A model generated the notes under the pieces. The model searched no databases and had not been told where the DNA came from. It saw nothing but the letters and a program-made list of their open reading frames with translations. Below are positions 455 to 20,788 of a stretch of DNA of 32,000 bases, piece by piece (position 1 is the stretch's first letter; each line of letters opens with the position of its first letter). The translations under genes and the position numbers were made by a program. The DNA comes from Nitrosospira multiformis ATCC 25196 (GTDB taxonomy: Bacteria; Pseudomonadota; Gammaproteobacteria; Burkholderiales; Nitrosomonadaceae), in assembly GCF_000196355.1 (NCBI RefSeq), contig NC_007614.1, forward strand, positions 60,001 through 92,000, read 5' to 3'.

Positions 455-698
455 AAGAATTTACACATATCATCCAATAATTCCAATAATAGCCGGTAAA
501 CCGGGTACTTCCGTTTTCAATCCAGGACGATGACTATTTGCGGCGGGGAGTCACGCGGTAGCGGCAAAAAACATGACCAATGTTATTTATACATTCAACT
601 ACCGATTTTCCTGCGGCTATTCGATATTGCACCTGAACTAGAACTATACAGCCCAGGTGCTCATGGATACTAGCTTTAAGATACTCAATCTTTGCTAT

Positions 699-720
699 GG
701 GTACACACGGGGGTACACAC
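699..720 (+). repeat. tandem GGGTACACAC x2 (699-708, 711-720); candidate recombinase/Xis arm-type sites at the island left end
   Basis: Exact 10-mer duplicated with a 2-bp spacer. The same GGTACAC/GTACCC core recurs four times, in the same orientation, next to the integrase gene at 10936-11035. Confidence 0.4.
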
Positions 721-898
721 CTTATCCAGTTCACTACGAATTAGCCACCAGATTTGCCCTTTTCAATATAAAGCAAATAACGTCGAAAGACGAGTTTCCG
801 GAGGAACAAATAGGGCACACCTACACCCATCAAGAATATGAGTGTAGTAGCCCCCAATTGAACCGGACACAGATGCACTGATGATAGGAGATAGGCAT

Positions 899-1306
899 AT
901 GCCTGGTGCTATGCATAGTGCTTCAGGTTTGGATCGTATTGAAATCGTCACCGGGATCGAGCGCCGCAGGCGCTGGAGCCTGGGTGAGAAATTAAAAGCT
1001 GTTGAGGAATCCCGCTTGCCGGGCATGAGTGTCTCGTATGTGGCGCGAAAATATGGTATTGCTCCGAGCTTGTTATTTCGCTGGAGGAAGCTCATGACTG
1101 AAGGAGGCAAGGAAGCTGTTCGTAGCGATGATGCGGTAGTGTCTGCGGCCGAGGTGAAAGAGTTGAAGAAGCGGATCCGGGAGTTGGAGCGGGTTCTGGG
1201 CAAGAAAACCCTGGAGAACGAGATTCTCACGGAAGCGGTGAAGCTTGCGCATGAAAAAAAACTGATCTCGCGCATGCCCTTGCTGCCACCGGACGATTTG
1301 CCATGA
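899..1306 (+). CDS. IS3-family transposase OrfA (HTH)
   Basis: The motif RRRRWSLGEKLKAVEES...PGMSVSYVARKYGIAPSLLFRWRK resembles IS2 OrfA. GGAG at 887-890 precedes the ATG at 899; the ORF track begins at 881. Confidence 0.85.
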   Translation: MPGAMHSASGLDRIEIVTGIERRRRWSLGEKLKAVEESRLPGMSVSYVARKYGIAPSLLFRWRKLMTEGGKEAVRSDDAVVSAAEVKELKKRIRELERVLGKKTLENEILTEAVKLAHEKKLISRMPLLPPDDLP

Positions 1307-2151
1307 AGGCCATTGCAGACACCATGGGTGTGGCGCGCTCCCGTCTTGTGGAACGGATGAAGCCGCAGGAAAAGTCTTTTCGTTGCCGCTACAACAAGGC
1401 TGATGATGCCTGGCTGTTGCCCTTGATCCGCGAAATTGTGGATTGCCGCGCGACCTACGGATACAGAAGGATTTGCGCTCTCCTTAACCGCAAACTGGAG
1501 AGAATGGGCAAGCCTGCTGTCAATCACAAGCGGGTCTATCGCATCATGCGCCAGAATGGCCTGCTGCTGGCCCGATATACGGGCAAACAGCGCGTGCTGT
1601 CTCATGAAGGCAAGGTCATTACCTTGCGTTCCAATTTGCGCTGGTGTTCGGATGGTTTTGAGATTCCCTGCTGGAATGGGCAAGTAGTGCGTGTTGCCTT
1701 CGCCCTGGATTGCTGTGATCGTGAAGTCATCAGCCATGTTGCCACCACTGGCGGCATTACTGGGGAAATGGTGCGCGATCTGATGACTGAATCCGTTGAG
1801 CGGCGCTTCGGCACCGTTGACCTGCTCCCACACAGGGTGGAGTGGCTCAGCGACAATGGCAGCTGTTACACCGCCAGCGAGACAACTGCTTTTGCAAAGG
1901 ATATGGGCTTCATCAGCTGTTTTACTCCCGTCAGAAGTCCCGAATCCAACGGTATGGCCGAGGCCTTCGTCAAAACCTTCAAGCGGGATTACGTCTATGT
2001 CCATGATCGTCCCGACGCAAAAACCGTAATGGCGCAGCTTGACCAATGGTTCGAGGATTACAATGAATTCCATCCTCACAAGGGGCTGAAGATGAAGTCG
2101 CCAAGACAATTCATCCGCAGCCAGTTACTAACCGCATCCTGTCCGGTTTAA
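1303..2151 (+). CDS. IS3-family transposase OrfB (rve DDE domain), probably made as an OrfAB fusion by -1 frameshift
   Basis: Integrase-core motifs are present (WLSDNGSCYTA, SPESNGMAEAF). The A8 slippery run at 1254-1261 lies in the orfA frame, and the -1 frame opens immediately after the TGA at 1252-1254. Confidence 0.88.
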   Translation: MKAIADTMGVARSRLVERMKPQEKSFRCRYNKADDAWLLPLIREIVDCRATYGYRRICALLNRKLERMGKPAVNHKRVYRIMRQNGLLLARYTGKQRVLSHEGKVITLRSNLRWCSDGFEIPCWNGQVVRVAFALDCCDREVISHVATTGGITGEMVRDLMTESVERRFGTVDLLPHRVEWLSDNGSCYTASETTAFAKDMGFISCFTPVRSPESNGMAEAFVKTFKRDYVYVHDRPDAKTVMAQLDQWFEDYNEFHPHKGLKMKSPRQFIRSQLLTASCPV

Positions 2152-2550
2152 TAGGGGCAACTCCAATGAGGGCAAACATTACATACACCTGAGAAGATAA
2201 AAAAGCGGTTGAGACAGCGTTATCTGAGCCAACAAGTTGGCCAAAGAATCCCATCACTATAAAACTTAGGCCAACGATAGAATCCACCTTAGTTGCGACC
2301 ACCTTTTTAAGGTCGTCCTCCTTGTAAAACGCGTCGGCTTCCGAATACTCTTGTTCCCCCTGTGAAGCAAACCCCCAAACAAGGATCAATGCACCGAGAA
2401 GATCATATAGCAACGCCACACGAGCAAGGGTAAACCAATCAAGCGATAACATTTAATTCTCCTTAGTTAAATAGGCCAAAAGGCTACCTCCTAGTATGCA
2501 AATATCATTATGACATGTCAATGCGAACTAGAAATTTTTTTGTGAACTAC

Positions 2551-2578
2551 CTGCACTTTTGCAGACGTCTGCACTTTT
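2551..2578. promoter_or_regulatory. operator-like element: palindrome TGCAGACGTCTGCA (2560-2573) nested in a direct repeat CTGCACTTTT (2551-2560, 2569-2578)
   Basis: A perfect 14-bp palindrome lies about 40 bp upstream of a candidate minus-strand promoter for the membrane-protein gene (TTGACA at 2521-2516, 17-nt spacer, CATACT at 2498-2493). Confidence 0.4.
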
Positions 2579-2585
2579 CCCTGGA

Positions 2586-2621
2586 CAAACAAAAACCCCC
2601 TCATTTTTTAAGATGAGGGGG
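2586..2621 (-). terminator. rho-independent terminator after orf201
   Basis: The minus-strand stem is CCCCCTCAT / ATGAGGGGG (2596-2604 / 2613-2621) with an 8-nt loop, followed by TTTTTGTTTG. Confidence 0.75.
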
Positions 2622-2654
2622 TTACTTATACCTGGTGCGTTTAAGCTGCTTTAG

Positions 2655-3260
2655 TTAAAAAGGTGGATACACTCCTGTATCCCCCTTTCGAGCTGGTTTT
2701 TGCGATTGTACAGCGGTGTGCACCACTCCAGCATCAGTTAGCCCGGTCTCGATCTGGTCAATTTGTGCTTGGAGACTGGTATTTTCGGCCATAAGATTAT
2801 TTATTTCTGTCATCCGTTTTGGCATCGCAGGTCCAACAATGGTCGGGTATTCCATTTCTTGTACCGCTTTCCGCAGGCCTGCCTTTAGCTGGTCGCCCAG
2901 CATCCAAAATAATGCTACTTCGAGGTCATATACAGTAGCTTCATGATGGTCGTGTTCGCATGCTGTCAGGATTTTAAGCCCCCCCACTTTCCCTCTGTCT
3001 CCGACATAGTTGCAACCCGCGTCTTTGCCGTGGCAAGGATTTTTAGTGACAAGCTTCACCGCTTCTGCCAACTTTTGCGGATAGCGGTCTGCAATCCGAT
3101 CCATACGGGCAGCAAGCAGATCCGCCAGTTCTTCGCGAGGCGGAGGGAGGTTTTTGAGTTCCTCGATCCGGAGCTTATTCTTCCCTATTGTTGCCCGCAT
3201 CTTTTGGCACTCGTTACGAGCGTCTTCCAAAGTGCTTTTTACTTTTAACCAATCAAACAT
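2655..3260 (-). CDS. hypothetical protein with heptad-like (coiled-coil-looking) N- and C-terminal segments
   Basis: 201-aa ORF with an AAAGGAA SD, 42 nt downstream of the S49 gene. No family recognised. Confidence 0.6.
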   Translation of the reverse strand: MFDWLKVKSTLEDARNECQKMRATIGKNKLRIEELKNLPPPREELADLLAARMDRIADRYPQKLAEAVKLVTKNPCHGKDAGCNYVGDRGKVGGLKILTACEHDHHEATVYDLEVALFWMLGDQLKAGLRKAVQEMEYPTIVGPAMPKRMTEINNLMAENTSLQAQIDQIETGLTDAGVVHTAVQSQKPARKGDTGVYPPF

Positions 3261-3302
3261 TATCGATATTCCTTTGTCTTTTCAGGTTTGTTTACCCACC
3301 GC

Positions 3303-4268
3303 TTACACGCGACGTAATATCTTGACGCTGCCTGCCGCAGCTGCGCGCGTGTAGGCCGTGAAGCCCTCGAGTGTCACGAATTCCTCACGAATCTGCGGAT
3401 CATTGCGCCACTGGGCAGCGCAGGATTCTTCCAGGGACATAGATATTTGCTCCTCCTTTTTCGTTGCCCTGGCTGCGCTGGGCATTGCGCCAGACGAAAC
3501 CAGGGTACTTTCAAACGTGCCAATGGCGTCAGCCAGTCCCGCCCTTACTGCCTCAACGCCAACCAATACCCCGCCTTGCCCGAAGTCGGAGTTGACCTTC
3601 ATTTCATTAACTCCGCGATACCGTGCAACCTTCGCGGTAAATACACTGGCAAGACTGTCGATTTCTTTCTGCAGGACCTGGAGCCCCTCAGGGGTCGCCG
3701 GATCAGGTCTTTTCTTGGGTGCATTGGAAGAAACGATCTGATGAAAAATGACTCCCTGCATTTGCTGGCGCGCCTTGTCATCAATGGCTGTGCCAACCAC
3801 CCCGATGCTGCCTACCAGAGCTGTATCGGAAATTGTGATGTGACTGGTAGCGGCTGCCAGCCAGTAAGCAGCGGAAGCTCCCATTCCGGAAACAAAAGAC
3901 TCTATTGGCTTGATGGATCGAGCCGAGAATATTTGGTCCGCCAGCGGAGATACTCCGGATACCACGCCTCCAGGCGAATCAATGTTCAATACGATCTTGT
4001 TAACGGACGAGTCAGCCAAGGCAGCGCTCAGGTCCTGCTGGATGGTTTCCACATCTGTGCCGCCAAAGAGCAGACTGAGGAAGCTTGCGCGTGGCGTGAT
4101 AGGGCCAGTGATATCGATAACTGCCACGCCGTCCTGCGAAACACTTTTGCGTTGGGATGCCGGAAACTTGAGGCCTGGACCGGCAGCGTGTGCGTTTCGG
4201 ATCAGGCTTTCAAAAGTTTCCTTGTGCAATGCCCAGGGGCGGCCAAAGAGTTCAGTATGAAGACTCAT
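3303..4268 (-). CDS. S49-family serine peptidase (SppA / phage prohead protease gpC-like) with a scaffold-like C-terminal tail
   Basis: The sequence NKIVLNIDSPGG...SGMGASAAYWLAAA is typical of the S49/ClpP-fold family. The C-terminal roughly 80 aa is non-protease. The ATGA start/stop overlaps orf291. Confidence 0.75.
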   Translation of the reverse strand: MSLHTELFGRPWALHKETFESLIRNAHAAGPGLKFPASQRKSVSQDGVAVIDITGPITPRASFLSLLFGGTDVETIQQDLSAALADSSVNKIVLNIDSPGGVVSGVSPLADQIFSARSIKPIESFVSGMGASAAYWLAAATSHITISDTALVGSIGVVGTAIDDKARQQMQGVIFHQIVSSNAPKKRPDPATPEGLQVLQKEIDSLASVFTAKVARYRGVNEMKVNSDFGQGGVLVGVEAVRAGLADAIGTFESTLVSSGAMPSAARATKKEEQISMSLEESCAAQWRNDPQIREEFVTLEGFTAYTRAAAAGSVKILRRV

Positions 4269-5140
4269 AAGCTTTTCGCATCCGTAGACATATGCAATCC
4301 GGCTGATCTAAGCGCGTTTTCGATCTGCTCCTGGCTGAGCACGTCAGTAATCAAAGGCGGCAGTTCACCTTTTTCATCATCGCAATCCATGGCTTGGCGA
4401 AGGATGCGGCCATGATAGTCACTAAGATCATGATCATGTCTTGCCTGGAGCTCTTCTGAGCTGCCCCAAGCGTGAAGTGTGAGAACAGCTAGTTTTCCCA
4501 AAATATCCATGTACGATTTTCCTATATGAGTTGAGGGATTGATCGCAGTAGTCGATCGAGGTTGATCGTACGTATCGGCATGGAGGTGCAACAAGATGGA
4601 AGAGGTGCATGAAGCTGCGGCATGTTCCTGCACTATCTTCCTCAGCTGTCGCCAGTCACGAGGCACCATGCCCCCACCGAACTTGAAGGCAAAGAACAAT
4701 GCACGCCGAAAAGGAGTCATATCTTCCGGCGGAAGCGTGCGCTCCTCCAGCTGAGGCCAGAAGACCTCCTGGAAGATGTCAATTTGCTTGCTCAATTCAA
4801 GCCGGCGCTTGTGATCGGTAGGTTCATCAATCAATTCAAACGCACGCACGAGCCAGGTATTCCGTGCTTCGAATCTATCAACAGTTCGCCAATTACGTTG
4901 AGCCGCTGAAGGCGCAAGATTCATCACTTCATCGAGCGTGCGCTTCCCATTCACGTATTCACGGAATTTGGCTCTAACCCACAGAAGAGTTTCCGCAGGA
5001 ACCAATTCGCTATCAGGTGCGGTAAGCGCACGGATGTGTTCCTCTATATCGGGTGGAAGTCCACACTGTCTACCTGGTGGGGTTTCACCTCCCGTTGCCA
5101 GTTGCCTCCAATGATTTGCTTCGATGTGTGACGCACTCAT
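4265..5140 (-). CDS. hypothetical protein (291 aa), translationally coupled to the S49 peptidase
   Basis: Long ORF with a 4-bp overlap with the downstream gene. No family recognised. Confidence 0.6.
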   Translation of the reverse strand: MSASHIEANHWRQLATGGETPPGRQCGLPPDIEEHIRALTAPDSELVPAETLLWVRAKFREYVNGKRTLDEVMNLAPSAAQRNWRTVDRFEARNTWLVRAFELIDEPTDHKRRLELSKQIDIFQEVFWPQLEERTLPPEDMTPFRRALFFAFKFGGGMVPRDWRQLRKIVQEHAAASCTSSILLHLHADTYDQPRSTTAINPSTHIGKSYMDILGKLAVLTLHAWGSSEELQARHDHDLSDYHGRILRQAMDCDDEKGELPPLITDVLSQEQIENALRSAGLHMSTDAKSL

Positions 5141-5157
5141 TGGTAAATCTCTCCAAT

Positions 5158-5198
5158 GACCACCCTATTGACCACATAGACCACTCCGAACCGACCAC
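5158..5198. repeat. four GACCAC hexamers (5158, 5170, 5179, 5193) in the 5' region of orf291
   Basis: Four same-orientation copies lie within 41 bp, starting 18 bp upstream of the orf291 start codon. This is a candidate regulator-binding array. Confidence 0.35.
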
Positions 5199-5330
5199 CC
5201 CATGAGTTCAAAGTCACTAGCGCTTTTTTGGGGTCGTTCGTGCCGCATCTAAAAAACCTCCTGGAAGGACCCGTGAATTCTGGCTGGCAACCCCGTCCAG
5301 TTCTGCCCATCCCACACATATACATACCTA

Positions 5331-5534
5331 GGGTGAAATAAGTGAAATAAGTGAAGAAAGGCGTGGTTATTGGGTTTGAGCCAGATTGGTAAAAGTGAAA
5401 TAAGTGAAAAAAGGGTGATTTATATATAAAGTGATTTATATTATTTATAGTTATTTCACCTTTTTTCACCCTTTTTTCACCGTTAATATTCCTTTGAATA
5501 CCGCATGAATAGGCTTTCTTCACTTATTTCACCC
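5331..5534. repeat. iteron-flanked putative origin of replication
   Basis: Five GTGAARWAA 9-mers lie on the plus strand (5333, 5342, 5351, 5395, 5404) and five inverted copies follow (5451, 5461, 5472, 5515, 5524). They flank an AT-rich core that contains 2x GTGATTTATAT (5415, 5431). The outermost iteron overlaps the helicase stop codon. Confidence 0.7.
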
Positions 5535-6923
5535 TTTCTTATAAGCGTAATATCTCAATGCCGGTCTCCCGCCTGAGGCGCTATCCTTGCGTTCCTCCGC
5601 CAGTGGAGGCGCAAGGTTGAGCAACACCTCAAGCGCATGCTTCACCTGCTTGATATGCTTGCGGTTCCAGTGATCCTGCAAGGCTGTGAGGGTGATGCCA
5701 GGATTGGAAGTGATTAAGGACAGCACCTCGGCAACGAAAGGATCAATGCCGCCTTCATCATCCTGACAGTTGAAGATGTAGGTGACGCTAGCGTGCCAGT
5801 ACTCCACCCAGGCAATCGCCGCCCAAAGATCGCATGGCTCGATCTCAAGTCTTCCATCCATTGCAGCAAAGATCATGGCGAGCATTCGCGCATACATCTC
5901 AGATCGCGCCAGCAGGCTCCCTCCTTTGCCGTCCCTGTCCCGGGTAAGGCGTGGGTACTGCTCTATCCACAACTCGCGTGCAGCATCGCTCAGACGAACT
6001 TCCCGGGTGTTGTTCCCGTGGAGGTCACCTCCTGTTGCTGCCATTACTGCATCAGCTACGCGCGCCGCCAGCAGGCTCAGTGTTTCTTCAGGTGTGGGCT
6101 CAGGCAGAGGCACCAGCTTAGGGCGATACACGTACAGCATCATGAATCGATTCAGCAGCCCGTTTGCCACCTCGTTATCCGTCGATTTTTCGCGCAGCTC
6201 ATGGCTGGTGATGTGGCCCAGGATAACGACATGAGGCCGCGTGGCCTTGGTCTGATTGGTCTTGGTAAGCGGCTCCATATCCCGGCCATCGAAGAGATTG
6301 CGTATGGTTGCCGACAGTGTGTTGTTGTCGCGGCGCAGCTGCGAGAGCGTGTTGTCCATTTCGCTTTCAATCACCAGCAGGCGCTTATCCGCCACGCCAG
6401 CATCGGCCCCTTTGCCGTTGTCGTCAGCCTCGCGCGGGTCCCGTATCGCCCATGCCACCCCTTCACCAGTGGAAAGACCGCCAGCGTGAATCCGCAGGCG
6501 GTCATTGTTTCCTTGTCGTTTTCTAAGGATTTCATCTGCGCGGCGGAATATCTCACGTACCGTGGTTTCCGCCGTGCCCTTTCTGGCCTTGCCGCTCTTT
6601 CCAACAATGATCTGGAAGGCGCGGCAGTGAATCGAAGCATCTCCGATCTTCTGGAAAATGGAGCGGCCAGTCATCGCACAGAAGAAGGCCAGGACGTTCG
6701 ACGCCACGGCCACCGGATGCGCTTCGCTGTTGGAGCATGCTGCTTCGACGAACTTATGAACAAGAGGGGGGAAACCATCCTCATGCATGCGCGGCGGCGC
6801 CAAGGGAGTGTGAGTTTCAACCAGTTGTGGCCCCGGCAGCTTGCTCGCGCTCGCCTTCGCTGCCACCTTATCGAGGGCAACAGCGCCGCGCTCAATGCTT
6901 TGGGTATCGTCACGAATCGCCAT
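5529..6923 (-). CDS. DUF3987 (YfjI-like) putative replicative helicase / replication initiator
   Basis: 464 aa with a P-loop-like GKSGKARKGTA. The N-terminal FPPLVHKFVEAA region is typical of DUF3987 proteins found next to primases in integrative elements. Confidence 0.65.
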   Translation of the reverse strand: MAIRDDTQSIERGAVALDKVAAKASASKLPGPQLVETHTPLAPPRMHEDGFPPLVHKFVEAACSNSEAHPVAVASNVLAFFCAMTGRSIFQKIGDASIHCRAFQIIVGKSGKARKGTAETTVREIFRRADEILRKRQGNNDRLRIHAGGLSTGEGVAWAIRDPREADDNGKGADAGVADKRLLVIESEMDNTLSQLRRDNNTLSATIRNLFDGRDMEPLTKTNQTKATRPHVVILGHITSHELREKSTDNEVANGLLNRFMMLYVYRPKLVPLPEPTPEETLSLLAARVADAVMAATGGDLHGNNTREVRLSDAARELWIEQYPRLTRDRDGKGGSLLARSEMYARMLAMIFAAMDGRLEIEPCDLWAAIAWVEYWHASVTYIFNCQDDEGGIDPFVAEVLSLITSNPGITLTALQDHWNRKHIKQVKHALEVLLNLAPPLAEERKDSASGGRPALRYYAYKKG

Positions 6924-7335
6924 TGCACACCTCGGTCGCCCTTTGCAATCGTGAAGCAGCCACCAGGAGGCGCTTTCTGTCTTCCTCTGAAAGCTCCACG
7001 CCTTTGGCTACATTCAGTGCCGCTATCGATACCAGGAGTGCTTCGAATGCCAGACAGCGCAAAATGTCGCTTGCATAAAATGGTTTCCGCTCTTTCTGGC
7101 CGCTGTAACCTTCCTGACGCTCTGGAAACAAATCTTCGAGGGAGAGTCCTACTGCCGCGAGAACATTGGAGGTTTCGCATCCCGCGAAGTCATGCAGGAG
7201 CACGCGCCCATCGTCCAGTTCTCTAATCGCGAGAGAGGGCCGTTTATCCCGATGAGCTGGGCAGCGTGCTATCCAGCGACCTCTCCCGGTTTGTTTCACT
7301 CCGTCCAGGCGGTTCAAAAGGGTAGAGGCGCTCAT
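6910..7335 (-). CDS. primase-type zinc-binding domain protein (no catalytic domain recognisable)
   Basis: The WIARCPAHRDKRPSLAIRELDDGRVLLHDFAGC motif (CPxH...H..xxGC) matches the N-terminus of phage and plasmid primases. The protein is only 141 aa. It overlaps both neighbouring genes. Confidence 0.55.
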   Translation of the reverse strand: MSASTLLNRLDGVKQTGRGRWIARCPAHRDKRPSLAIRELDDGRVLLHDFAGCETSNVLAAVGLSLEDLFPERQEGYSGQKERKPFYASDILRCLAFEALLVSIAALNVAKGVELSEEDRKRLLVAASRLQRATEVCNGDS

Positions 7336-7607
7336 GAGCCACCTGCCTTCTGCTGCTCAGCGTCATGCTCATCCAGCAGCGCGCTAGCCTTTTCGATTTG
7401 CTTTATCAGGTTTTGAAGCGTGTAGATAAAACCATATGCCTCCGGGGCGGATAACTCGAGCCTGCTCTCGAGCTCTGCTCTATTGGAGAGCGCTCCGCTC
7501 AGGAACTCAGCCACGTAGGTGGCCTCGCAGAGCATGTCCTGTGCTTCAATGAGTTTGTTGGTGGTAGACGCTTGAAGCGCTACTACTTGTGCGTTTTGCC
7601 TAGCCAT
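7332..7607 (-). CDS. hypothetical protein (91 aa)
   Basis: ORF overlapping both neighbours (operon coupling). No family recognised. Confidence 0.5.
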   Translation of the reverse strand: MARQNAQVVALQASTTNKLIEAQDMLCEATYVAEFLSGALSNRAELESRLELSAPEAYGFIYTLQNLIKQIEKASALLDEHDAEQQKAGGS

Positions 7608-8031
7608 GTTGCACCTCCTTTGAGGTCAACGTAGGAGCACTTTCAGAATCCCTGTCATAGGGCGTAGCTCCAGCTCGAAGTGCACGAAGTCCCACAATGG
7701 CAACGGCAGCCAGGGCTTTTGAGAACCCGCATTCAATCCCCCATCCGGTTGATTTCCAACCGACGTCATTAAAAACGTACTCCAGGGCTAAGCAGGCCTC
7801 GTATTCGTCAACTTCGGCGAGCGCGACAATTTCTGCGAAATATTGCAACCCGATATCAACACCCTCGTGCCAGTACCCTTCTGGATCGTGGGGGACACGC
7901 CAAATGCGCAGAAGATCGTGTTCATCCGGGGCCGCGAAAGAAAGGTCGCTGCGGGACCGGATTGATTTGGCAGGGAGAGGTTGAACAGCTTTGAGATGTG
8001 GCGCGGACGCACCCTTGAATGCCTTAGGCAT
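7600..8031 (-). CDS. hypothetical protein (143 aa); first gene of the replication operon
   Basis: I trimmed the ORF from the track start at 8271 to the ATG at 8031, which is preceded by AAGGAG (8044-8039). The upstream 80 codons span a terminator and hairpins. Confidence 0.55.
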   Translation of the reverse strand: MPKAFKGASAPHLKAVQPLPAKSIRSRSDLSFAAPDEHDLLRIWRVPHDPEGYWHEGVDIGLQYFAEIVALAEVDEYEACLALEYVFNDVGWKSTGWGIECGFSKALAAVAIVGLRALRAGATPYDRDSESAPTLTSKEVQHG

Positions 8032-8038
8032 AGCAAGA

Positions 8039-8127
8039 CTCCTTTGTAAGCGGTTGATGTTCTCCGCTTCCCCGACGCCAATCGGGTGGGCGGAATCGTG
8101 CGAGTTGGCGTACCGGACAAAGGAACC
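8039..8127 (-). promoter_or_regulatory. structured 5' leader with SD-proximal motif copy (D) and antisense copy (M)
   Basis: Read in the RNA sense, M is GGUUCCUUUGUCCGGUACGCCAACUCG (8127-8101). D is a hairpin CCCGA-UUGGCG-UCGGG (8086-8071), then a hairpin at 8069-8048, then ACAAAGGAG (8047-8039), which contains the SD. Confidence 0.5.
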
Positions 8128-8190
8128 GGCGAGCCCGAAGGCTCCCCACACGACCCGCCCGTAAAAAGGGCTTGCCGTACAACGGACGTA

Positions 8191-8216
8191 AAATAAAAAA
8201 ACCGCCAAGAGGCGGT
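8191..8216 (-). terminator. rho-independent terminator (conditional?)
   Basis: The minus-strand stem is ACCGCC-UCUU-GGCGGU (8216-8201), followed by U8 (8200-8193). An upstream AGGCGG (8227-8222) can pair with the same CCGCCU instead. Confidence 0.7.
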
Positions 8217-8269
8217 TGTGTCCGCCTTTGTACCGAGACGCCAATCTCGACCACTGAATTTGCAGTGGC
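8191..8269 (-). ncRNA. candidate ~78-nt terminated leader transcript / small RNA
   Basis: It lies between a sigma70-like promoter and an intrinsic terminator. It contains hairpins CCACUG-CAAAUU-CAGUGG (8268-8251) and CGAGA-UUGGCG-UCUCG (8249-8234), followed by ACAAAGG. Confidence 0.4.
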
Positions 8270-8275
8270 AAGCAA

Positions 8276-8305
8276 AGGATAAGCCCGAGCGAATGCGAAT
8301 GTCAA
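8276..8305 (-). promoter_or_regulatory. sigma70-like promoter of the leader/replication operon
   Basis: On the minus strand there is TTGACA (8305-8300), an 18-nt spacer, and TATCCT (8281-8276). Confidence 0.45.
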
Positions 8306-8318
8306 GGGCTGGCAGGGG

Positions 8319-8552
8319 CTAATCACCATTGCCAGCACCTTTCAAGATGCGACGTTCTTCAGCCCGCTCATCCAAATGAGCCAACAAGGCTATTCCGACA
8401 ACAAGTACGGGATGCTTTTTGATTATTTCCTCTGGTGATTCCCGTAGGCCAAGCTCGCCAGCTATGACCTGTGCTGCCTCCCAAAGCTGGTTGCTGGCAT
8501 ACTCAAGACCATCAGCCCGCAGCTTGTTGTAATCGATCTCAGGGCCGCTCAT
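8319..8552 (-). CDS. hypothetical protein (77 aa)
   Basis: ORF with an ATGA overlap with alpA. No family recognised. Confidence 0.5.
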   Translation of the reverse strand: MSGPEIDYNKLRADGLEYASNQLWEAAQVIAGELGLRESPEEIIKKHPVLVVGIALLAHLDERAEERRILKGAGNGD

Positions 8553-8803
8553 TGTGCTGTCCCTTGCAGCGAAGCCAGTACTTTTCTGAGTTTGCCAACG
8601 TTCCAGAATGTCATCCTGCCCAGCTTGGTGGGCTGCGGGAGAGTGCCGTCATTCACGCGCCGCCAGACCGTGGCATCGGAGCAGTTGAGAAGCCCCTTTA
8701 AAACTGGCTGGCGAACGTTGGCAGAATCGGGGAGTGAATCGAAGTGCTTGAGGGCATCAGGAATAACGTCTTCCTGCTTTACCCTTTTGCTCTGTTGAGG
8801 CAT
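8549..8803 (-). CDS. alpA: AlpA-family transcriptional regulator / excisionase-type HTH
   Basis: 84 aa. The segment LLNCSDATVWRRVNDGTLPQPTKLGRMTFWNVGKL matches the AlpA/MerR-type phage regulator pattern. Confidence 0.8.
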   Translation of the reverse strand: MPQQSKRVKQEDVIPDALKHFDSLPDSANVRQPVLKGLLNCSDATVWRRVNDGTLPQPTKLGRMTFWNVGKLRKVLASLQGTAQ

Positions 8804-8809
8804 GGTAGG

Positions 8810-8845
8810 TTTCTCCTTGATATGTTCTGAATGAACAAGGAGAAA
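8810..8845 (-). promoter_or_regulatory. SD-sequestering hairpin in the alpA 5' UTR
   Basis: A perfect 10-bp inverted repeat TTTCTCCTTG / CAAGGAGAAA (8810-8819 / 8836-8845) has a 16-nt loop. In the mRNA the 3' arm carries the AAGGAG SD, 9 nt from the ATG. Confidence 0.5.
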
Positions 8846-8915
8846 TCTACCGGCTTGGGATAGAGCTTTGTCCGATCGGTTTAATTTAAAGCCGATTCGG
8901 TTTTGATACGAGGAC

Positions 8916-9539
8916 TTATGCGCCTTTGAAGGGAATTCTTGTTGCTGCTTCTCTCAGGTATGCGAGTACCGTTTCCTCACTGATTTTAATGCCAACTATT
9001 TCAAGATCCCGCTTGATCACCCCGGGTACGGCACTCTTCTTTGCTTCGGGATCGTACTTATACTTTTTTACTGCTATCCCAAGCACTATTTTTAACAAGC
9101 TCGTTCTCGCACTGTCTGGAAGATTATCTTGCTGGCCTGTATCGTTTACCGTAAATATTGACAAAAGCTTGCGTTCTTCCTCCGAAATGCATTCCACATA
9201 GCTTTTTATGAAATGAGGTAAATCAGCTTCCAGAACGGCAAGTCTTTCTTTCATCGATTCCCGTAATCCTTCCTCTTCAGTATGTTGAATTTTCCAAGCA
9301 GCAAACCCACATAATCCTAACTTCCACAGCACACTTGCAGCCCTGCGCTGCCTGGTGGTCATGTTTATGTGCTCGGGTTCAGAGGACAGGTTCAATTTCT
9401 TGCCAATCTTGCAGTCAATTTCGCTGATGGTCACTTTATTGGTGTTGTATAAATTTGGCGGTATAAAATCAGCCAGATCTCGTCGCGCCATTTCTCGCAC
9501 TTCCAACATATCCCAACTTTTCTTATCCCAGCTGCTCAT
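8916..9539 (-). CDS. hypothetical protein (207 aa), AT-rich cargo or regulator
   Basis: Long ORF between int and alpA. It looks AT-richer than its neighbours by eye. No family recognised. Confidence 0.55.
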   Translation of the reverse strand: MSSWDKKSWDMLEVREMARRDLADFIPPNLYNTNKVTISEIDCKIGKKLNLSSEPEHINMTTRQRRAASVLWKLGLCGFAAWKIQHTEEEGLRESMKERLAVLEADLPHFIKSYVECISEEERKLLSIFTVNDTGQQDNLPDSARTSLLKIVLGIAVKKYKYDPEAKKSAVPGVIKRDLEIVGIKISEETVLAYLREAATRIPFKGA

Positions 9540-9639
9540 TTCCCACTTCCTTCCAAGCGTATCCCTTCAAATTGGTTGCCACCCCAGGCGGTGAAGGTTT
9601 CCGTTTTTCTCCTGGCCTGGATAGGGGTGGCTTAACAGT

Positions 9640-10902
9640 TTATTGTTTTGTTGCTACGGCACGCCTGATCGGCACAACCTTATCAGCCTCGCCCCGCTCG
9701 ATCTGGAGCAACAGTCCCGCCCAGGCCTCCAGTGCCGCCTTGCGTTCTTCAAAGTAGTCGTGCCGGTTATAGATGCCCTCGATCCCCTTGATCTTGTGAT
9801 TCAGGCAACGCTCGGCAATGTGAGGGGCAACGCCCAGGGCTTCGAAATGCGTACGCGCAGTACGGCGTAGATCATGGATAGTGAAGGGTTCCAGGCCGTG
9901 CTTGATCTTTGCCAGAGCCACGCTCAGCGTGCTTTCCGCAATATGTGGAATCATCCGATCCTGCATCTTGCGAGCCGGCAACACCCACTTGCTAACACCC
10001 GCCAGGCGCTGCAACTCGCGCAGCCACTCTACTGCAATCGGAGGCAAGGGTATGTCAATGGCAGATTCGGTTTTCGTGCGTTCGGCAGGCAGATACCAGA
10101 CAGCTTTATCCAGGTCGAACTCAGACCACCTGGCGCCGATCAGCTCACCCTTTCGCACCGCAAGCAGTAATAGCAGTTTGATGCTCAAGCCGTTCTCCAC
10201 ACTGAAACCAGGTGCTTGCCGCATTGCTTCAAAGAGCGTGACCAGCTCCTCGCTGGTCAACCAGCGCGTCCGGCTTTTCTCCTTGCCGCCAGCGTCACCT
10301 GGATCAAATGCAGCCGCGGGATTGTATTCGATGATGTGGCGCTTGATAGCATAGTTGAACATGCGCTTAAGCCAGCGCAGTGTATCGTTCGCTATGGAAG
10401 GCGCACCCCGTTTCATTACAGCCTTGAGCACATCATCAATATGCCTGGGCTTTACATCCTCAACCTTCAAGCTGCCAATCGCGGGCTTGATGTCTTTCTC
10501 GATCCTGGATCGTACGATGTTTGGGTGCTTCCATCGCCCTGCAATCATCCTTTCAAAATATTCGTCGGCCAGCTGCGCCACGGTGTACGCATTCTTCTCC
10601 GCTTCTATCCTGGCAATGGCTTCGCCCTTGCGCTGCTGTTTTTCTCCGGCCACGTCGTAGCCCAAAGCAACGCGAGCGGACAGCTTCTTGGCTTCATCCC
10701 TGGCATCCGCCAGGGATAGCGTACCGTAACTGCCAATATTCATAACGCGGCGCTTGCCACAAAAACGGTATCTGAAACGCCAGATAGGAATGGCATAACC
10801 TTCACGAAAACTCAGATATAGGCCACCACCTACAGCACGGCCTTCAAACCGTTCGCCCGCCTTGATCCAGTTGCGGATCTCCATGTCTGTTAGCTTAGCC
10901 AT
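9640..10902 (-). CDS. int: tyrosine-type site-specific integrase (P4/CP4-57 type, DUF4102 N-terminus)
   Basis: 420 aa. The N-terminal LTDMEIRNWIKAGERF...GGLYLSF is typical of the family, and the C-terminal catalytic pattern HDLRRTART...LNH...GIYNRHDY is present. Confidence 0.92.
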   Translation of the reverse strand: MAKLTDMEIRNWIKAGERFEGRAVGGGLYLSFREGYAIPIWRFRYRFCGKRRVMNIGSYGTLSLADARDEAKKLSARVALGYDVAGEKQQRKGEAIARIEAEKNAYTVAQLADEYFERMIAGRWKHPNIVRSRIEKDIKPAIGSLKVEDVKPRHIDDVLKAVMKRGAPSIANDTLRWLKRMFNYAIKRHIIEYNPAAAFDPGDAGGKEKSRTRWLTSEELVTLFEAMRQAPGFSVENGLSIKLLLLLAVRKGELIGARWSEFDLDKAVWYLPAERTKTESAIDIPLPPIAVEWLRELQRLAGVSKWVLPARKMQDRMIPHIAESTLSVALAKIKHGLEPFTIHDLRRTARTHFEALGVAPHIAERCLNHKIKGIEGIYNRHDYFEERKAALEAWAGLLLQIERGEADKVVPIRRAVATKQ

Positions 10903-10935
10903 CTCTACTCACTGTTCAGGATTTAAGTTTTTTTA

Positions 10936-11035
10936 GGGGTACCCGGCATATCACGTAAACCCGCCTGTATCGGGCTTCTCGCTGGGTACACGTAAAAACC
11001 TGATAATTTCAGCGTATGTACCCTTATATGTACCC
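10936..11035 (+). repeat. four KGTACMC motifs (10938 GGTACCC, 10985 GGTACAC, 11017 TGTACCC, 11029 TGTACCC); candidate arm-type sites at the int-proximal end
   Basis: All are in the same orientation as the two left-end copies. CACGTAAA is also repeated (10952, 10989). Confidence 0.4.
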
Positions 11036-11078
11036 GGAAATATTGCGCTTTCCGGAAATGAATTGCAATGAACTGAAA

Positions 11079-11154: not shown

Positions 11155-12048
11155 TCACTCAATGTTTTGCACCTGTTCCCGCATTTGCTCGATCAAAACC
11201 TTGAGTTCCACCGAAATTTTCGACACTTCCGCATCCACCGATTTCGCGCCGATGGTATTGGCTTCCCGGTTGAGTTCCTGCATCAAAAAATCCAGTCGCT
11301 TGCCGATCGCTCCGCCTTTCTCCAGAACGCGCTCCACTTCATCGAAGTGTGCCTGAAGGCGCGACAGTTCCTCATCCACATCGATCTTGCTGGCGAACAA
11401 TGTCAATTCCTGGCGGATGCGCTCGTCGTCGCAATTTATCATGGCTTCACGCAGTCTAGCCTTGAGCTTTTCCTGAAATGTCGCCAGCAAGGCAGGAATG
11501 GATGGACTGACTTCGGATGCGAGCCGGCGCATATTGCCCAGGCGGTCCAGCAAAATAGCTTTAAGTTTTGCACCTTCGCGCCCACGGGCAGCGGCCAGTT
11601 CGTCCACTGCCGCATGCATCAAGTCCATGCATGGCCCGAAAAAGTTCTCGGCGGAGGAGGATTCCGTCGCCAATATTCCGGGCCAACGAAGGACATCTGC
11701 CACCGCCAGGCCCCGAGCCTCGGGCAATACCGCCCTGACGGTACGGTCCAGTTCCAGCAGTTTTTGCAACAAATCCGCATTAATATGCTGCAAATCTTCC
11801 GCAGGTGTAATCCGGGAAAAACTGACGCGGCATTCGATTTTTCCACGCTTGAGGCGGGTGGTCAGAAATTCGCGCATTGCGGTTTCCAGCATGCGGAATT
11901 CGTCGGGAAGGCGAAACTGGATATCGAGATAACGGCTGTTGACCGAGCGAAGCTCGAGATTCAACGATCCTTGCGGGAGTTCCTTCGCGACTACGGCATA
12001 GCCGGTCATGCTGTAGATCTTGGCTAACTTGTCCACTCGATCATCCAC
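11155..12048 (-). CDS. yicC: YicC/YloC-family stress-induced protein (endoribonuclease)
   Basis: It has the SMTGYA N-terminus and the C-terminal LIEQMREQVQNIE typical of YicC. The start is uncertain (GTG at 12048 or ATG at 12009). Confidence 0.88.
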   Translation of the reverse strand: MDDRVDKLAKIYSMTGYAVVAKELPQGSLNLELRSVNSRYLDIQFRLPDEFRMLETAMREFLTTRLKRGKIECRVSFSRITPAEDLQHINADLLQKLLELDRTVRAVLPEARGLAVADVLRWPGILATESSSAENFFGPCMDLMHAAVDELAAARGREGAKLKAILLDRLGNMRRLASEVSPSIPALLATFQEKLKARLREAMINCDDERIRQELTLFASKIDVDEELSRLQAHFDEVERVLEKGGAIGKRLDFLMQELNREANTIGAKSVDAEVSKISVELKVLIEQMREQVQNIE

Positions 12049-20714: not shown

Positions 20715-20788
20715 GCGGGTGTAGCTCAATGGCAGAGCAGAAGCTTCCCAAGCTTACGACGAGGGTTCGATTCCCTTCACCCGCTCCA
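20715..20788 (+). tRNA. tRNA-Gly (anticodon CCC)
   Basis: 74 nt with acceptor stem GCGGGTG/CACCCGC, D arm GCTC/GAGC, anticodon loop TTCCCAA, T arm GAGGG-TTCGATT-CCCTT and an encoded CCA. It is close to E. coli glyU as I recall it. Position 27:43 is a G-A mismatch. Confidence 0.92.

Follow-up and report, generated by a model that had tools for sequence, protein, structure and literature searches.

The window analysed here is a stretch of 32,000 nucleotides (nt) from the genome of Nitrosospira multiformis ATCC 25196 (NC_007614.1, positions 60,001 to 92,000), and it holds an integrated island of about 10.3 kb that lies between trxC and yicC (Table 1). The island carries a P4-type integrase (domains Arm-DNA-bind_3, Phage_int_M and Phage_integrase), an int-alpA RNA, an AlpA-like gene, a leader, replication genes and an S49 head-maturation protease (phrog_53, 3.4e-69). 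Our subject is the leader, which occupies the minus strand between the stop codon of orf77 and the ATG of orf143. An earlier note on this DNA had called it the leader of a replication operon, a reasonable description given that orf143 is followed by a primase-N-like gene (orf141) and a DUF3987 gene (orf464) whose stops and starts overlap. The leader is an ordinary member of the known immunity switch that is governed by antisense RNA in phages P1 (c4) and P4 (CI), the mechanism of which was worked out in those two phages during the 1990s. Specifically, the leader very probably constitutes a complete c4/CI-type RNA immunity module of the sort found in the immI regions of P1 and P7 and in the satellite P4. 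The element itself is therefore one that is already known, and what is mildly new is confined to a clean antiterminator/terminator design that is coupled to one of its target sites, b1.

Table 1. Features of the leader, the controlled operon and the surrounding island (window coordinates; the strand follows in brackets).
Feature	Position (strand)	Sequence, basis or remark
Island	~680-11060	~10.3 kb
trxC	14-454	flanks the island
yicC	11155-12048	flanks the island
Leader	8318-8032 (-)	between orf77 stop (8319) and orf143 ATG (8031)
Sigma-70-like promoter	8276..8305 (-)	TTGACA (8305-8300), 18 nt, TATCCT (8281-8276); 10 of 12 matches
5'-terminal hairpin	8250..8269 (-)	GCCACUG-CAAAUU-CAGUGGU, conserved GCAAAUUC loop; first helix of the isrK and c4-a1b1 models
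c4-a1b1 match (RF03163)	8282..8230 (-)	permissive scan
isrK match (RF01394)	8269..8195 (-)	contains U and the terminator
Copy U	8249-8222 (-)	CGAGAUUGGCGUCUCGGUACAAAGGCGG
a1 hairpin	8234..8249 (-)	CGAGA-UUGGCG-UCUCG; target UUGGCGU 8244-8238; equivalent to part a of P4 seqA
b1 target	8225..8231 (-)	ACAAAGG; second half of U; final GG opens the antiterminator arm GGCGG (8226-8222)
Candidate antiterminator hairpin	8211..8226 (-)	GGCGG-ACACAA-CCGCC; 3' arm (8215-8211) is the 5' arm of the terminator
Intrinsic terminator	8195..8217 (-)	AACCGCC-UCUU-GGCGGUU and U run; -12.1 kcal/mol, z = -2.6; 3' end of isrK-type RNA; corresponds to P4 t1
Conserved block	8173-8188 (-)	CGUCCGUUGUACGGCA
C4/CI-type antisense RNA (RF01695)	8082..8166 (-)	Rfam match and fold; M lies inside
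Predicted mature C4	about 8160-8085 (-)	~76 nt, by homology to P1 c4; ACC tail 8087-8085
Copy M	8127-8101 (-)	GGUUCCUUUGUCCGGUACGCCAACUCG
b'	8123-8117 (-)	CCUUUGU; loop of C4 hairpin 2
a'	8111-8105 (-)	ACGCCAA; single-stranded C4 linker
Copy D, first half	8086-8071 (-)	CCCGAUUGGCGUCGGG
a2 hairpin	8071..8086 (-)	CCCGA-UUGGCG-UCGGG; target UUGGCGU 8081-8075; 5' arm (8086-8082) overlaps the C4 ACC tail
Spacer hairpin	8048..8069 (-)	AAGCGG-AGAACAUCAA-CCGCUU; folding prediction, between a2 and b2
b2 target (copy D, second half)	8039..8047 (-)	ACAAAGGAG; Shine-Dalgarno sequence of orf143, 9 nt before ATG at 8031
Controlled operon	5529..8031 (-)	orf143, orf91, orf141, orf464; overlapping stops and starts
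orf143	8031-7600 (-)	no family or fold match
orf91	7607-7332 (-)
orf141	7335-6910 (-)	primase N-terminal-like; phrog_6088 DNA primase, 1.4e-16
orf464	6923-5529 (-)	DUF3987; PF13148, 7e-14
int-alpA RNA (RF02996)	9564-9631 (-)	between the integrase gene and orf207
GGGTACAC-like repeats	680-720; 10935-11045	near both island ends
tRNA-Gly(CCC)	20715-20788 (+)

Three copies of a bipartite motif

On the minus strand the leader holds three copies of a bipartite motif, here called U (upstream), M (middle) and D (downstream), the last divided into two halves. The earlier note had described these copies, and all of its motif coordinates and sequences were reproduced when the strand was read anew. Its observation that U is nearly the reverse complement of M likewise holds, the alignment giving 21 matched columns of 29, and the second half of D is, as it had maintained, the Shine-Dalgarno (SD) sequence of orf143. 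Within the 32-kb window TTGGCGT..ACAAAGG is confined to U, D and, in inverted form, M. Its half-sites stand 6 nt apart in U, 5 nt apart in M and 27 nt apart in D.

Duplex energies were compared with those of 1000 dinucleotide shuffles. The U:M duplex reaches -31.4 kcal/mol against a shuffle mean of -13.5 (standard deviation 2.7; z = -6.5), a value that no shuffle attained. The SD half of D pairs with M at -11.8 kcal/mol (z = -3.4; 5 of 1000 shuffles) and the hairpin half alone pairs more weakly (z = -2.0). Taken whole, D scores a z of only -1.6 against M because the spacer hairpin splits its two halves. As the earlier note had proposed, M can pair with either U or D; the energies beat those of shuffled sequence for U:M and for the SD half with M. 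Folding also predicts the hairpins that had been proposed to present UUGGCG in U and in D.

One could ask whether short motifs in a GC-rich intergenic region might simply resemble one another by chance, particularly as the half-sites measure only 7 nt and about four copies of any 7-mer are expected on the two strands of the window. This explanation is refuted by the shuffles just described, by the confinement of the bipartite arrangement to three places, by Rfam E-values of 7e-12 and 2e-11 and by an architecture that is conserved in more than 70 loci, and we accord it essentially no credence.

The second half of the motif, ACAAAGG, occurs again without the first half nearby at 3271-3277 (minus strand), just after the protease gene and 10 nt 5' of the ATG of orf201 (3260). 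It is probably an ordinary SD-like sequence there, chance alone accounting for about two copies on each strand.

Membership in the c4/CI family

An Rfam scan of the window at curated thresholds recognized two families in the leader, the C4 antisense RNA (70.0 bits where 45 is required, E = 6.9e-12, with all 87 model positions aligned) and isrK (63.4 bits where 50 is required, with all 77 model positions aligned); a permissive scan added c4-a1b1. The same scan of phage P4 returned C4, isrK and c4-a1b1 at 74.9, 60.8 and 44.1 bits, in the order and on the strand seen in the window, and in phage P1 the three models scored 68.8, 35.1 and 51.0 bits. The GenBank record of P1 annotates, in succession, a1 (7 nt), b1 (8 nt), the c4 RNA (77 nt), a2 (7 nt), b2 (8 nt) and icd, with gaps of 7, 22 and 10 nt (22 nt being the a2-b2 gap) where the window has 6, 27 and 9 nt. 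From the Rfam matches and the P1 annotation together, it follows that U is a1 plus b1, that M holds b' and a', and that D is a2 plus b2.

The earlier note had compared this layout with seqA, seqB and seqC of P4, and the comparison was correct: a sense target lies upstream, an antisense segment in the middle and a second sense target downstream over the SD sequence. The relation is in fact closer than analogy, since three Rfam models match the window, P4 and P1 in the same order, and the leader is accordingly homologous to the P4 and P1 immunity regions. The accompanying statement that the sequence is unrelated to that of P4 was wrong. The scaffold is conserved and the specificity segments alone differ, reading UUGGCGU/ACGCCAA in the window and GUGAGAA/UUCUCAC in P4 for the a pair, and ACAAAGG/CCUUUGU in the window and UUCACAGG/CCUGUGAA in P4 for the b pair. 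Similarly, the hairpin that splits D is predicted by folding as had been claimed, but it is no insertion: it is a conserved feature of the family, the normal a2-b2 spacer. The a2-b2 gap in relatives is about 19-25 nt, mostly 24, and reads as a small hairpin in most of the D sequences listed.

These assignments agree with the literature on the family. IsrK is a structural homolog of the P4 seqA RNA, and CI pairs with seqA and seqC (PMC4825925). The Rfam C4 and isrK models pick up relatives of CI and seqA in satellites (PMC10111431), the c4 and c4-a1b1 motifs have been listed for Proteobacteria and phages (PMC2864571), and CI and C4 are counted among the hairpin-like substrates of RNase P (PMC5499578). 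For specialists the result is one of routine annotation, with three curated Rfam families already covering the parts.

Covariation of the pairing segments

The closest sequence relatives of the leader are those of temperate phages of Pseudomonas aeruginosa and Bordetella avium, which align with it over about 200-230 nt at 69-73% identity and show compensation at all three sites at once. The a1/a'/a2 set reads UUGGCGU/ACGCCAA in the window, UUGGCCU/AGGCCAA in the Pseudomonas phage and UUGCAGU/ACUGCAA in the Bordetella phage; b1 and b2 with b' read ACAAAGG/CCUUUGU, CUGAAGG/CCUUCAG and GCUAAGG/CCUUAGC, respectively. A pattern built on the invariant C4 scaffold retrieved 120 viral contigs; once the window, P4 and the two phage leaders are added, these represent 55 distinct (b',a') types. 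An exact 7-mer complement of the locus's own segment is present at a1 in 50 of these types, at b1 in 47, at a2 in 50 and at b2 in 44. All four complements occur in 39 of the 55 loci when each is read against its own segments, compared with 2 of 2668 swapped pairs, and single sites match in 3-6% of swaps. This control counts exact Watson-Crick 7-mers, the version permitting G-U pairs being too lax (17-67% background).

A second pattern recovered the GC-rich clade to which the window itself belongs, and 20 of its members were aligned with MAFFT. Among these relatives pairing reaches 100% for a1:a' and 97% for a':a2, and in each of the two duplexes both partners have changed at 5 of 7 pairs. Pairing is 88% for b1:b', with compensation at 4 of 6 pairs, and 71% for b':b2, with compensation at 6 of 7; the figures for the b sites are underestimates because MAFFT misplaces b1 and b2, along with the terminator loop. 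None of 500 shuffles reached the observed values, and slid controls gave 25-45% pairing. For the helices within the molecule, namely the 5' hairpin, the stems of a1 and a2 and those of C4, pairing amounts to 96.9% and 17 pairs are compensatory. Within that set the 5'-terminal hairpin reaches 99%, both partners having changed at 4 of 6 pairs, and the a1 stem 98%, with 3 of 5 compensatory. The earlier remark that the stems of U and D differ but stay paired is thereby borne out, both hairpins covarying in relatives (the spacer hairpin is excluded from the count).

Covariation of this kind has to be weighed against a reading in which the three copies, two direct and one inverted, are operators in DNA bound by a sequence-specific protein that evolves with them. 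The copies are indeed the same bipartite DNA site, and a shared identity would mimic three-way covariation. However, a single rigid protein site would not show spacings of 6, 5 and 27 nt, paired positions tolerate G-U wobbles (e.g., UG:5 at one b':b2 pair), the half-sites lie in the loops of RNA hairpins that covary and are recognized by curated covariance models, and the genetics of P1 and P4 assign the sites to RNA. We regard operators as an extremely unlikely explanation.

Assortment of a' with b' is almost free in the viral contigs (L004-L123), where 14 different a' and 26 different b' 7-mers make up 55 combinations. The a' (ACGCCAA) and b' (CCUUUGU) of the window each occur in enterobacterial P4-type elements, in other combinations. 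Such near-free assortment in the sequences suggests recombination or convergence of immunity specificities. With at least 14 a' and at least 26 b' 7-mers in many combinations, the modularity of the specificity segments could help to predict cross-immunity among prophages and satellites.

Fold and predicted processing of the antisense RNA

The C4 segment has a minimum free energy (MFE) of -44 kcal/mol (z = -3.8), and its fold is the structure of the Rfam model: a long closing stem encloses two hairpins, the loop of hairpin 2 holds b', and a' lies in an unpaired linker. The C4 stems are 96-99% paired in the 20 relatives, and in hairpin 1 all 5 of 5 pairs are compensatory. When C4 was cofolded with the U or D region by nested RNAcofold, a check that the earlier note had suggested, the changes in free energy (ddG) were -2.6 and -1.0 kcal/mol, values that did not surpass those of shuffles. 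This calculation is uninformative because the contacts are kissing interactions between loops, which amount to pseudoknots and lie beyond nested folding, and it was replaced by opening and duplex energies. By that measure both segments are exposed in the C4 fold, costing 0.01 (a') and 0.17 (b') kcal/mol to open. Opening the targets costs 0.7-2.4 kcal/mol, and net binding, the sum of accessibility and hybridization, comes to about -13 kcal/mol for a1 plus b1 (U) and -15.6 kcal/mol for a2 plus b2 (D).

C4 also has the shape of a processing substrate, a stem like a tRNA acceptor followed by ACC, and homology to P1 c4 predicts the mature species given in Table 1. The ACC tail of that predicted species overlaps the 5' arm of the a2 hairpin, and excision of C4 would therefore destroy the a2 hairpin of the same molecule. 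The junction in P1 is equally tight, c4 ending 3 nt before a2. Between the leader terminator and C4 lies the block CGUCCGUUGUACGGCA, whose GTCC...GGC core almost every one of the 20 clade members retains; its role may be that of a processing signal or of an RNase P 5' leader.

Proposed mechanism

What the sequences and calculations show directly is membership of the c4/CI family, the structures, the three-way covariation and the energetics. How the module would operate, in terms of processing, action in trans, repression and termination, is carried over from experiments on P1 and P4. On that footing, a constitutive promoter would give rise to a transcript whose start, at about 8269, falls at the base of the 5' hairpin and which runs through a1, b1, the antiterminator/terminator, C4, a2 and b2 into orf143. 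The predicted promoter is the sole promoter-like site in 7500-9700, and its -10 region lies beneath the 5' part of the c4-a1b1 match. C4 would be cut from readthrough transcripts, its 5' end by RNase P if homology is a guide, to yield a stable RNA of about 76 nt. Acting in trans, a' would kiss the loop of the a2 hairpin and b' would pair with b2, which is the SD sequence, such that translation of orf143 would be blocked. Judging from the published systems, polarity would then silence the downstream primase/helicase operon as well, as it does icd-ant in P1 and kil/eta-alpha in P4; silencing of the whole operon should follow because its genes overlap stop to start. Finally, C4 would also pair with a1 and b1 on nascent transcripts, which would form the antiterminator first, and the resulting termination before C4 would set the level of C4 and thereby autoregulate it.

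Several points weigh against this reading. The c4-a1b1 match in the permissive scan, at 43.6 bits, falls just below the cut-off of 46.7, as does the site of P4 itself. A stable C4 RNA in Nitrosospira is presumed by analogy with the phage systems. The MFE fold of the full-length leader pairs U with M in cis (-115.6 kcal/mol, z = -6.0), an arrangement that could compete with folding of C4. The antiterminator signal falls off beyond the window's own clade and is modest across the wider family, with at least 4 antiterminator pairs in 32 of 71 distinct segments and a mean of 3.9 pairs against 2.8 in shuffled flanks. In addition, the homologous short RNA IsrK of Salmonella activates rather than represses its downstream gene (PMC4825925), and the sign of the upstream interaction is therefore not certain.

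The third of these points would be at home in an attenuator acting purely in cis, in which M is never released and pairing of U with M, or of M with D, chooses among terminator, antiterminator and SD-masking folds. The near-equal energies of the antiterminator and terminator alternatives, detailed below, could be read in the same way. Conversely, compensatory changes maintain a C4 shape, with its acceptor-like stem and ACC tail, that would be superfluous for action in cis only, and RNase P processes the P1 and P4 homologs, whose action is in trans (PMC5499578, PMC4825925). An attenuator confined to cis is accordingly very unlikely, and we retain the trans-acting C4 as the basis of the module.

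A candidate antiterminator/terminator switch

Just downstream of a1, the arm GGCGG pairs with CCGCC, which is also the 5' arm of the terminator CCGCC-UCUU-GGCGG-U7; the terminator was recovered as well by a scan independent of the isrK model. The two folds are nearly isoenergetic, with an equilibrium probability of 0.56 for the terminator and 0.44 for the antiterminator, and the terminator rises to 0.9997 once b1 is blocked. Since the final GG of b1 belongs to the GGCGG arm, pairing of C4 with b1 would free CCGCC for the terminator. The antiterminator arm is a copy of the 3' arm of the terminator and covaries with it in relatives. The arrangement is present in all 20 clade members and in P1, and its variants include GGCGC/GCGCC, GAGGC/GCCUC and AGCGG/CCGCU.

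We therefore propose, tentatively and at somewhat less than even confidence, that the upstream interaction is an attenuator operated by an RNA in trans, with C4 at b1 acting as a protein-free 'anti-antiterminator'. Briani and colleagues reportedly found in 2000 that CI RNA together with seqA enhances termination at the P4 intrinsic terminator t1, which is said to serve the autoregulation of CI. Termination at P4 t1 that depends on CI has thus reportedly been published already, and the novelty of the proposed attenuator would lie only in the structural rule and in how it is conserved. If true, the proposal would supply a simple structural rule for intrinsic termination promoted by CI or c4, and for an RNA level that sets itself, across the family. 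With its compact and strong antiterminator/terminator pair, the clade would also offer a clean model of intrinsic termination controlled by an antisense RNA.

The same upstream segment admits a second assignment of roles, modelled on IsrK, in which the short U RNA (8269-8195) is the main product acting in trans and serves as a decoy, or anti-antisense RNA, that turns translation of orf143 on. The isrK match is above its cut-off, U is a near-perfect mimic of D, and U:M is the strongest duplex of the leader. In Salmonella Gifsy-1 the short IsrK activates orf45-anrP in trans, with the processed C4-like RNA STnc1160 encoded downstream (PMC4825925). Activation of this kind is nonetheless compatible with repression by C4 and would merely add a second layer to the same known system, and in P4 the same element serves immunity (PMC3632133, PMC10111431). 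As the principal function of U we consider it unlikely, and repression by C4 remains the preferred account of the leader.

Comparison with known immunity systems

The order of parts and the near-equal spacings ally the leader with immI of P1 and P7, where b2 likewise overlaps the SD sequence of the first gene (the icd ribosome-binding site in P1). P1 c4 folds in the same way, its b' lying in the hairpin 2 loop and its a' in the linker, and P1 shows the same GCGG..CCGC..GCGG-U-run arrangement after b1. The specificity sequences differ, as do the genes controlled (orf143 and the primase/helicase operon in the window, icd-ant in P1) and the setting, an integrated island of about 10 kb in a betaproteobacterial nitrifier whereas P1 is a plasmid prophage.

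With P4 the leader shares the order of the three Rfam matches, control of a replication operon, and a P4-type integrase and alpA-like gene upstream. In both, the frame of the first gene is open through the whole leader, over 152 codons in P4 (eta/kil) and 90 in the window. The distance from terminator to C4 is shorter, however (28 nt against 107 nt in P4), the antiterminator comprises 5-6 bp rather than 4 bp, and orf143 is unrelated to kil. The gene content of the island also departs from that of P4. No island open reading frame (ORF) that we tested had a Pfam, PHROG or NCBIfam match for psu, sid or delta, an S49 protease is present instead, and the primase-N (phrog_6088) and DUF3987 proteins are encoded by two separate ORFs, such that primase and helicase are split. 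Because psu, sid and delta were not found and the S49 protease was, the island is not to be filed as P4-like on present evidence.

The resemblance to IsrK (RF01394) and STnc1160 of Salmonella Gifsy-1 extends over the 5' hairpin, the a1 hairpin, b1 and the terminator, which match the isrK model end to end, and in Gifsy-1 a C4-like RNA also lies downstream on the readthrough transcript. Unlike the role proposed here, the short RNA there activates translation of the antirepressor operon orf45-anrP (PMC4825925). Binding of Hfq and activation of a downstream gene in trans are properties of the Salmonella IsrK (PMC4825925). The P. aeruginosa phages vB_Pae_CF23a and YMC11/07/P54 and the B. avium phage vB_BaM-IFTN4 belong with the window in the GC-rich clade and share its GGCGG-AC..-CCGCC antiterminator. 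Their leaders differ in standing 5' of Bro/Rha/Ant-type antirepressor genes, in full phages, and in their compensated specificity sequences.

The island and its relatives

The module guards the replication operon of an integrase/AlpA/primase island of about 10 kb in N. multiformis, an organism with little recorded phage biology, and the attenuator design, if true, would bring a satellite-like island from an ammonia oxidizer into the family. The AlpA-like ORF is assigned by a weak match to phrog_9834 (8e-5). The int-alpA RNA motif scores 55.6 bits against a cut-off of 35.8; it was found as well in a Nitrosospira briensis island (L124:639-705) and in a viral contig that bears a C4 leader (L154:8750-8818). 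The GGGTACAC-like repeats near both island ends may be arm sites of the integrase, and a search of the island for direct repeats of the att type found none. The tRNA-Gly(CCC) gene lies about 10 kb from the integrase gene, beyond yicC, rph and genes for a Ham1-family protein, a HemN-like radical-SAM protein and a Methyltransf_4-family methyltransferase, and is not the attachment site of this island.

A search of genome contigs with orf143 returned a single relative, in the N. briensis island just mentioned (NZ_FOVJ01000002.1), which shares orf143 at 69% identity, the primase-N-like protein at 75% and orf291 at 64%, along with the protease. Over the 6.3 kb compared, that island has the int-alpA RNA and no C4 or isrK match; its orf143 homolog is preceded by other small ORFs. 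This suggests that the RNA immunity module is a cassette that can be swapped, and the covariation reported above was for the same reason drawn from relatives on viral contigs rather than from a comparison within the same island.

The product of orf143 itself matches a hypothetical protein of N. multiformis ATCC 25196 at 100% identity. It had no Pfam, PHROGs or NCBIfam match and no similarity to P1 Icd, and its AlphaFold model (three helices, predicted local distance difference test score, pLDDT, of 72) had no match in the PDB. The orf143 frame remains open for 90 codons upstream, as far as a TGA at 8304-8302 within the -35 box, and so spans a1, b1, C4, a2 and b2; the first in-frame start upstream in the ORF scan is a TTG at 8271. 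The corresponding frame is open through a1 in 10 of the 20 clade relatives. An open frame of this length could allow a bypass of immunity by coupled translation of a transcript arriving from alpA-orf77 upstream.

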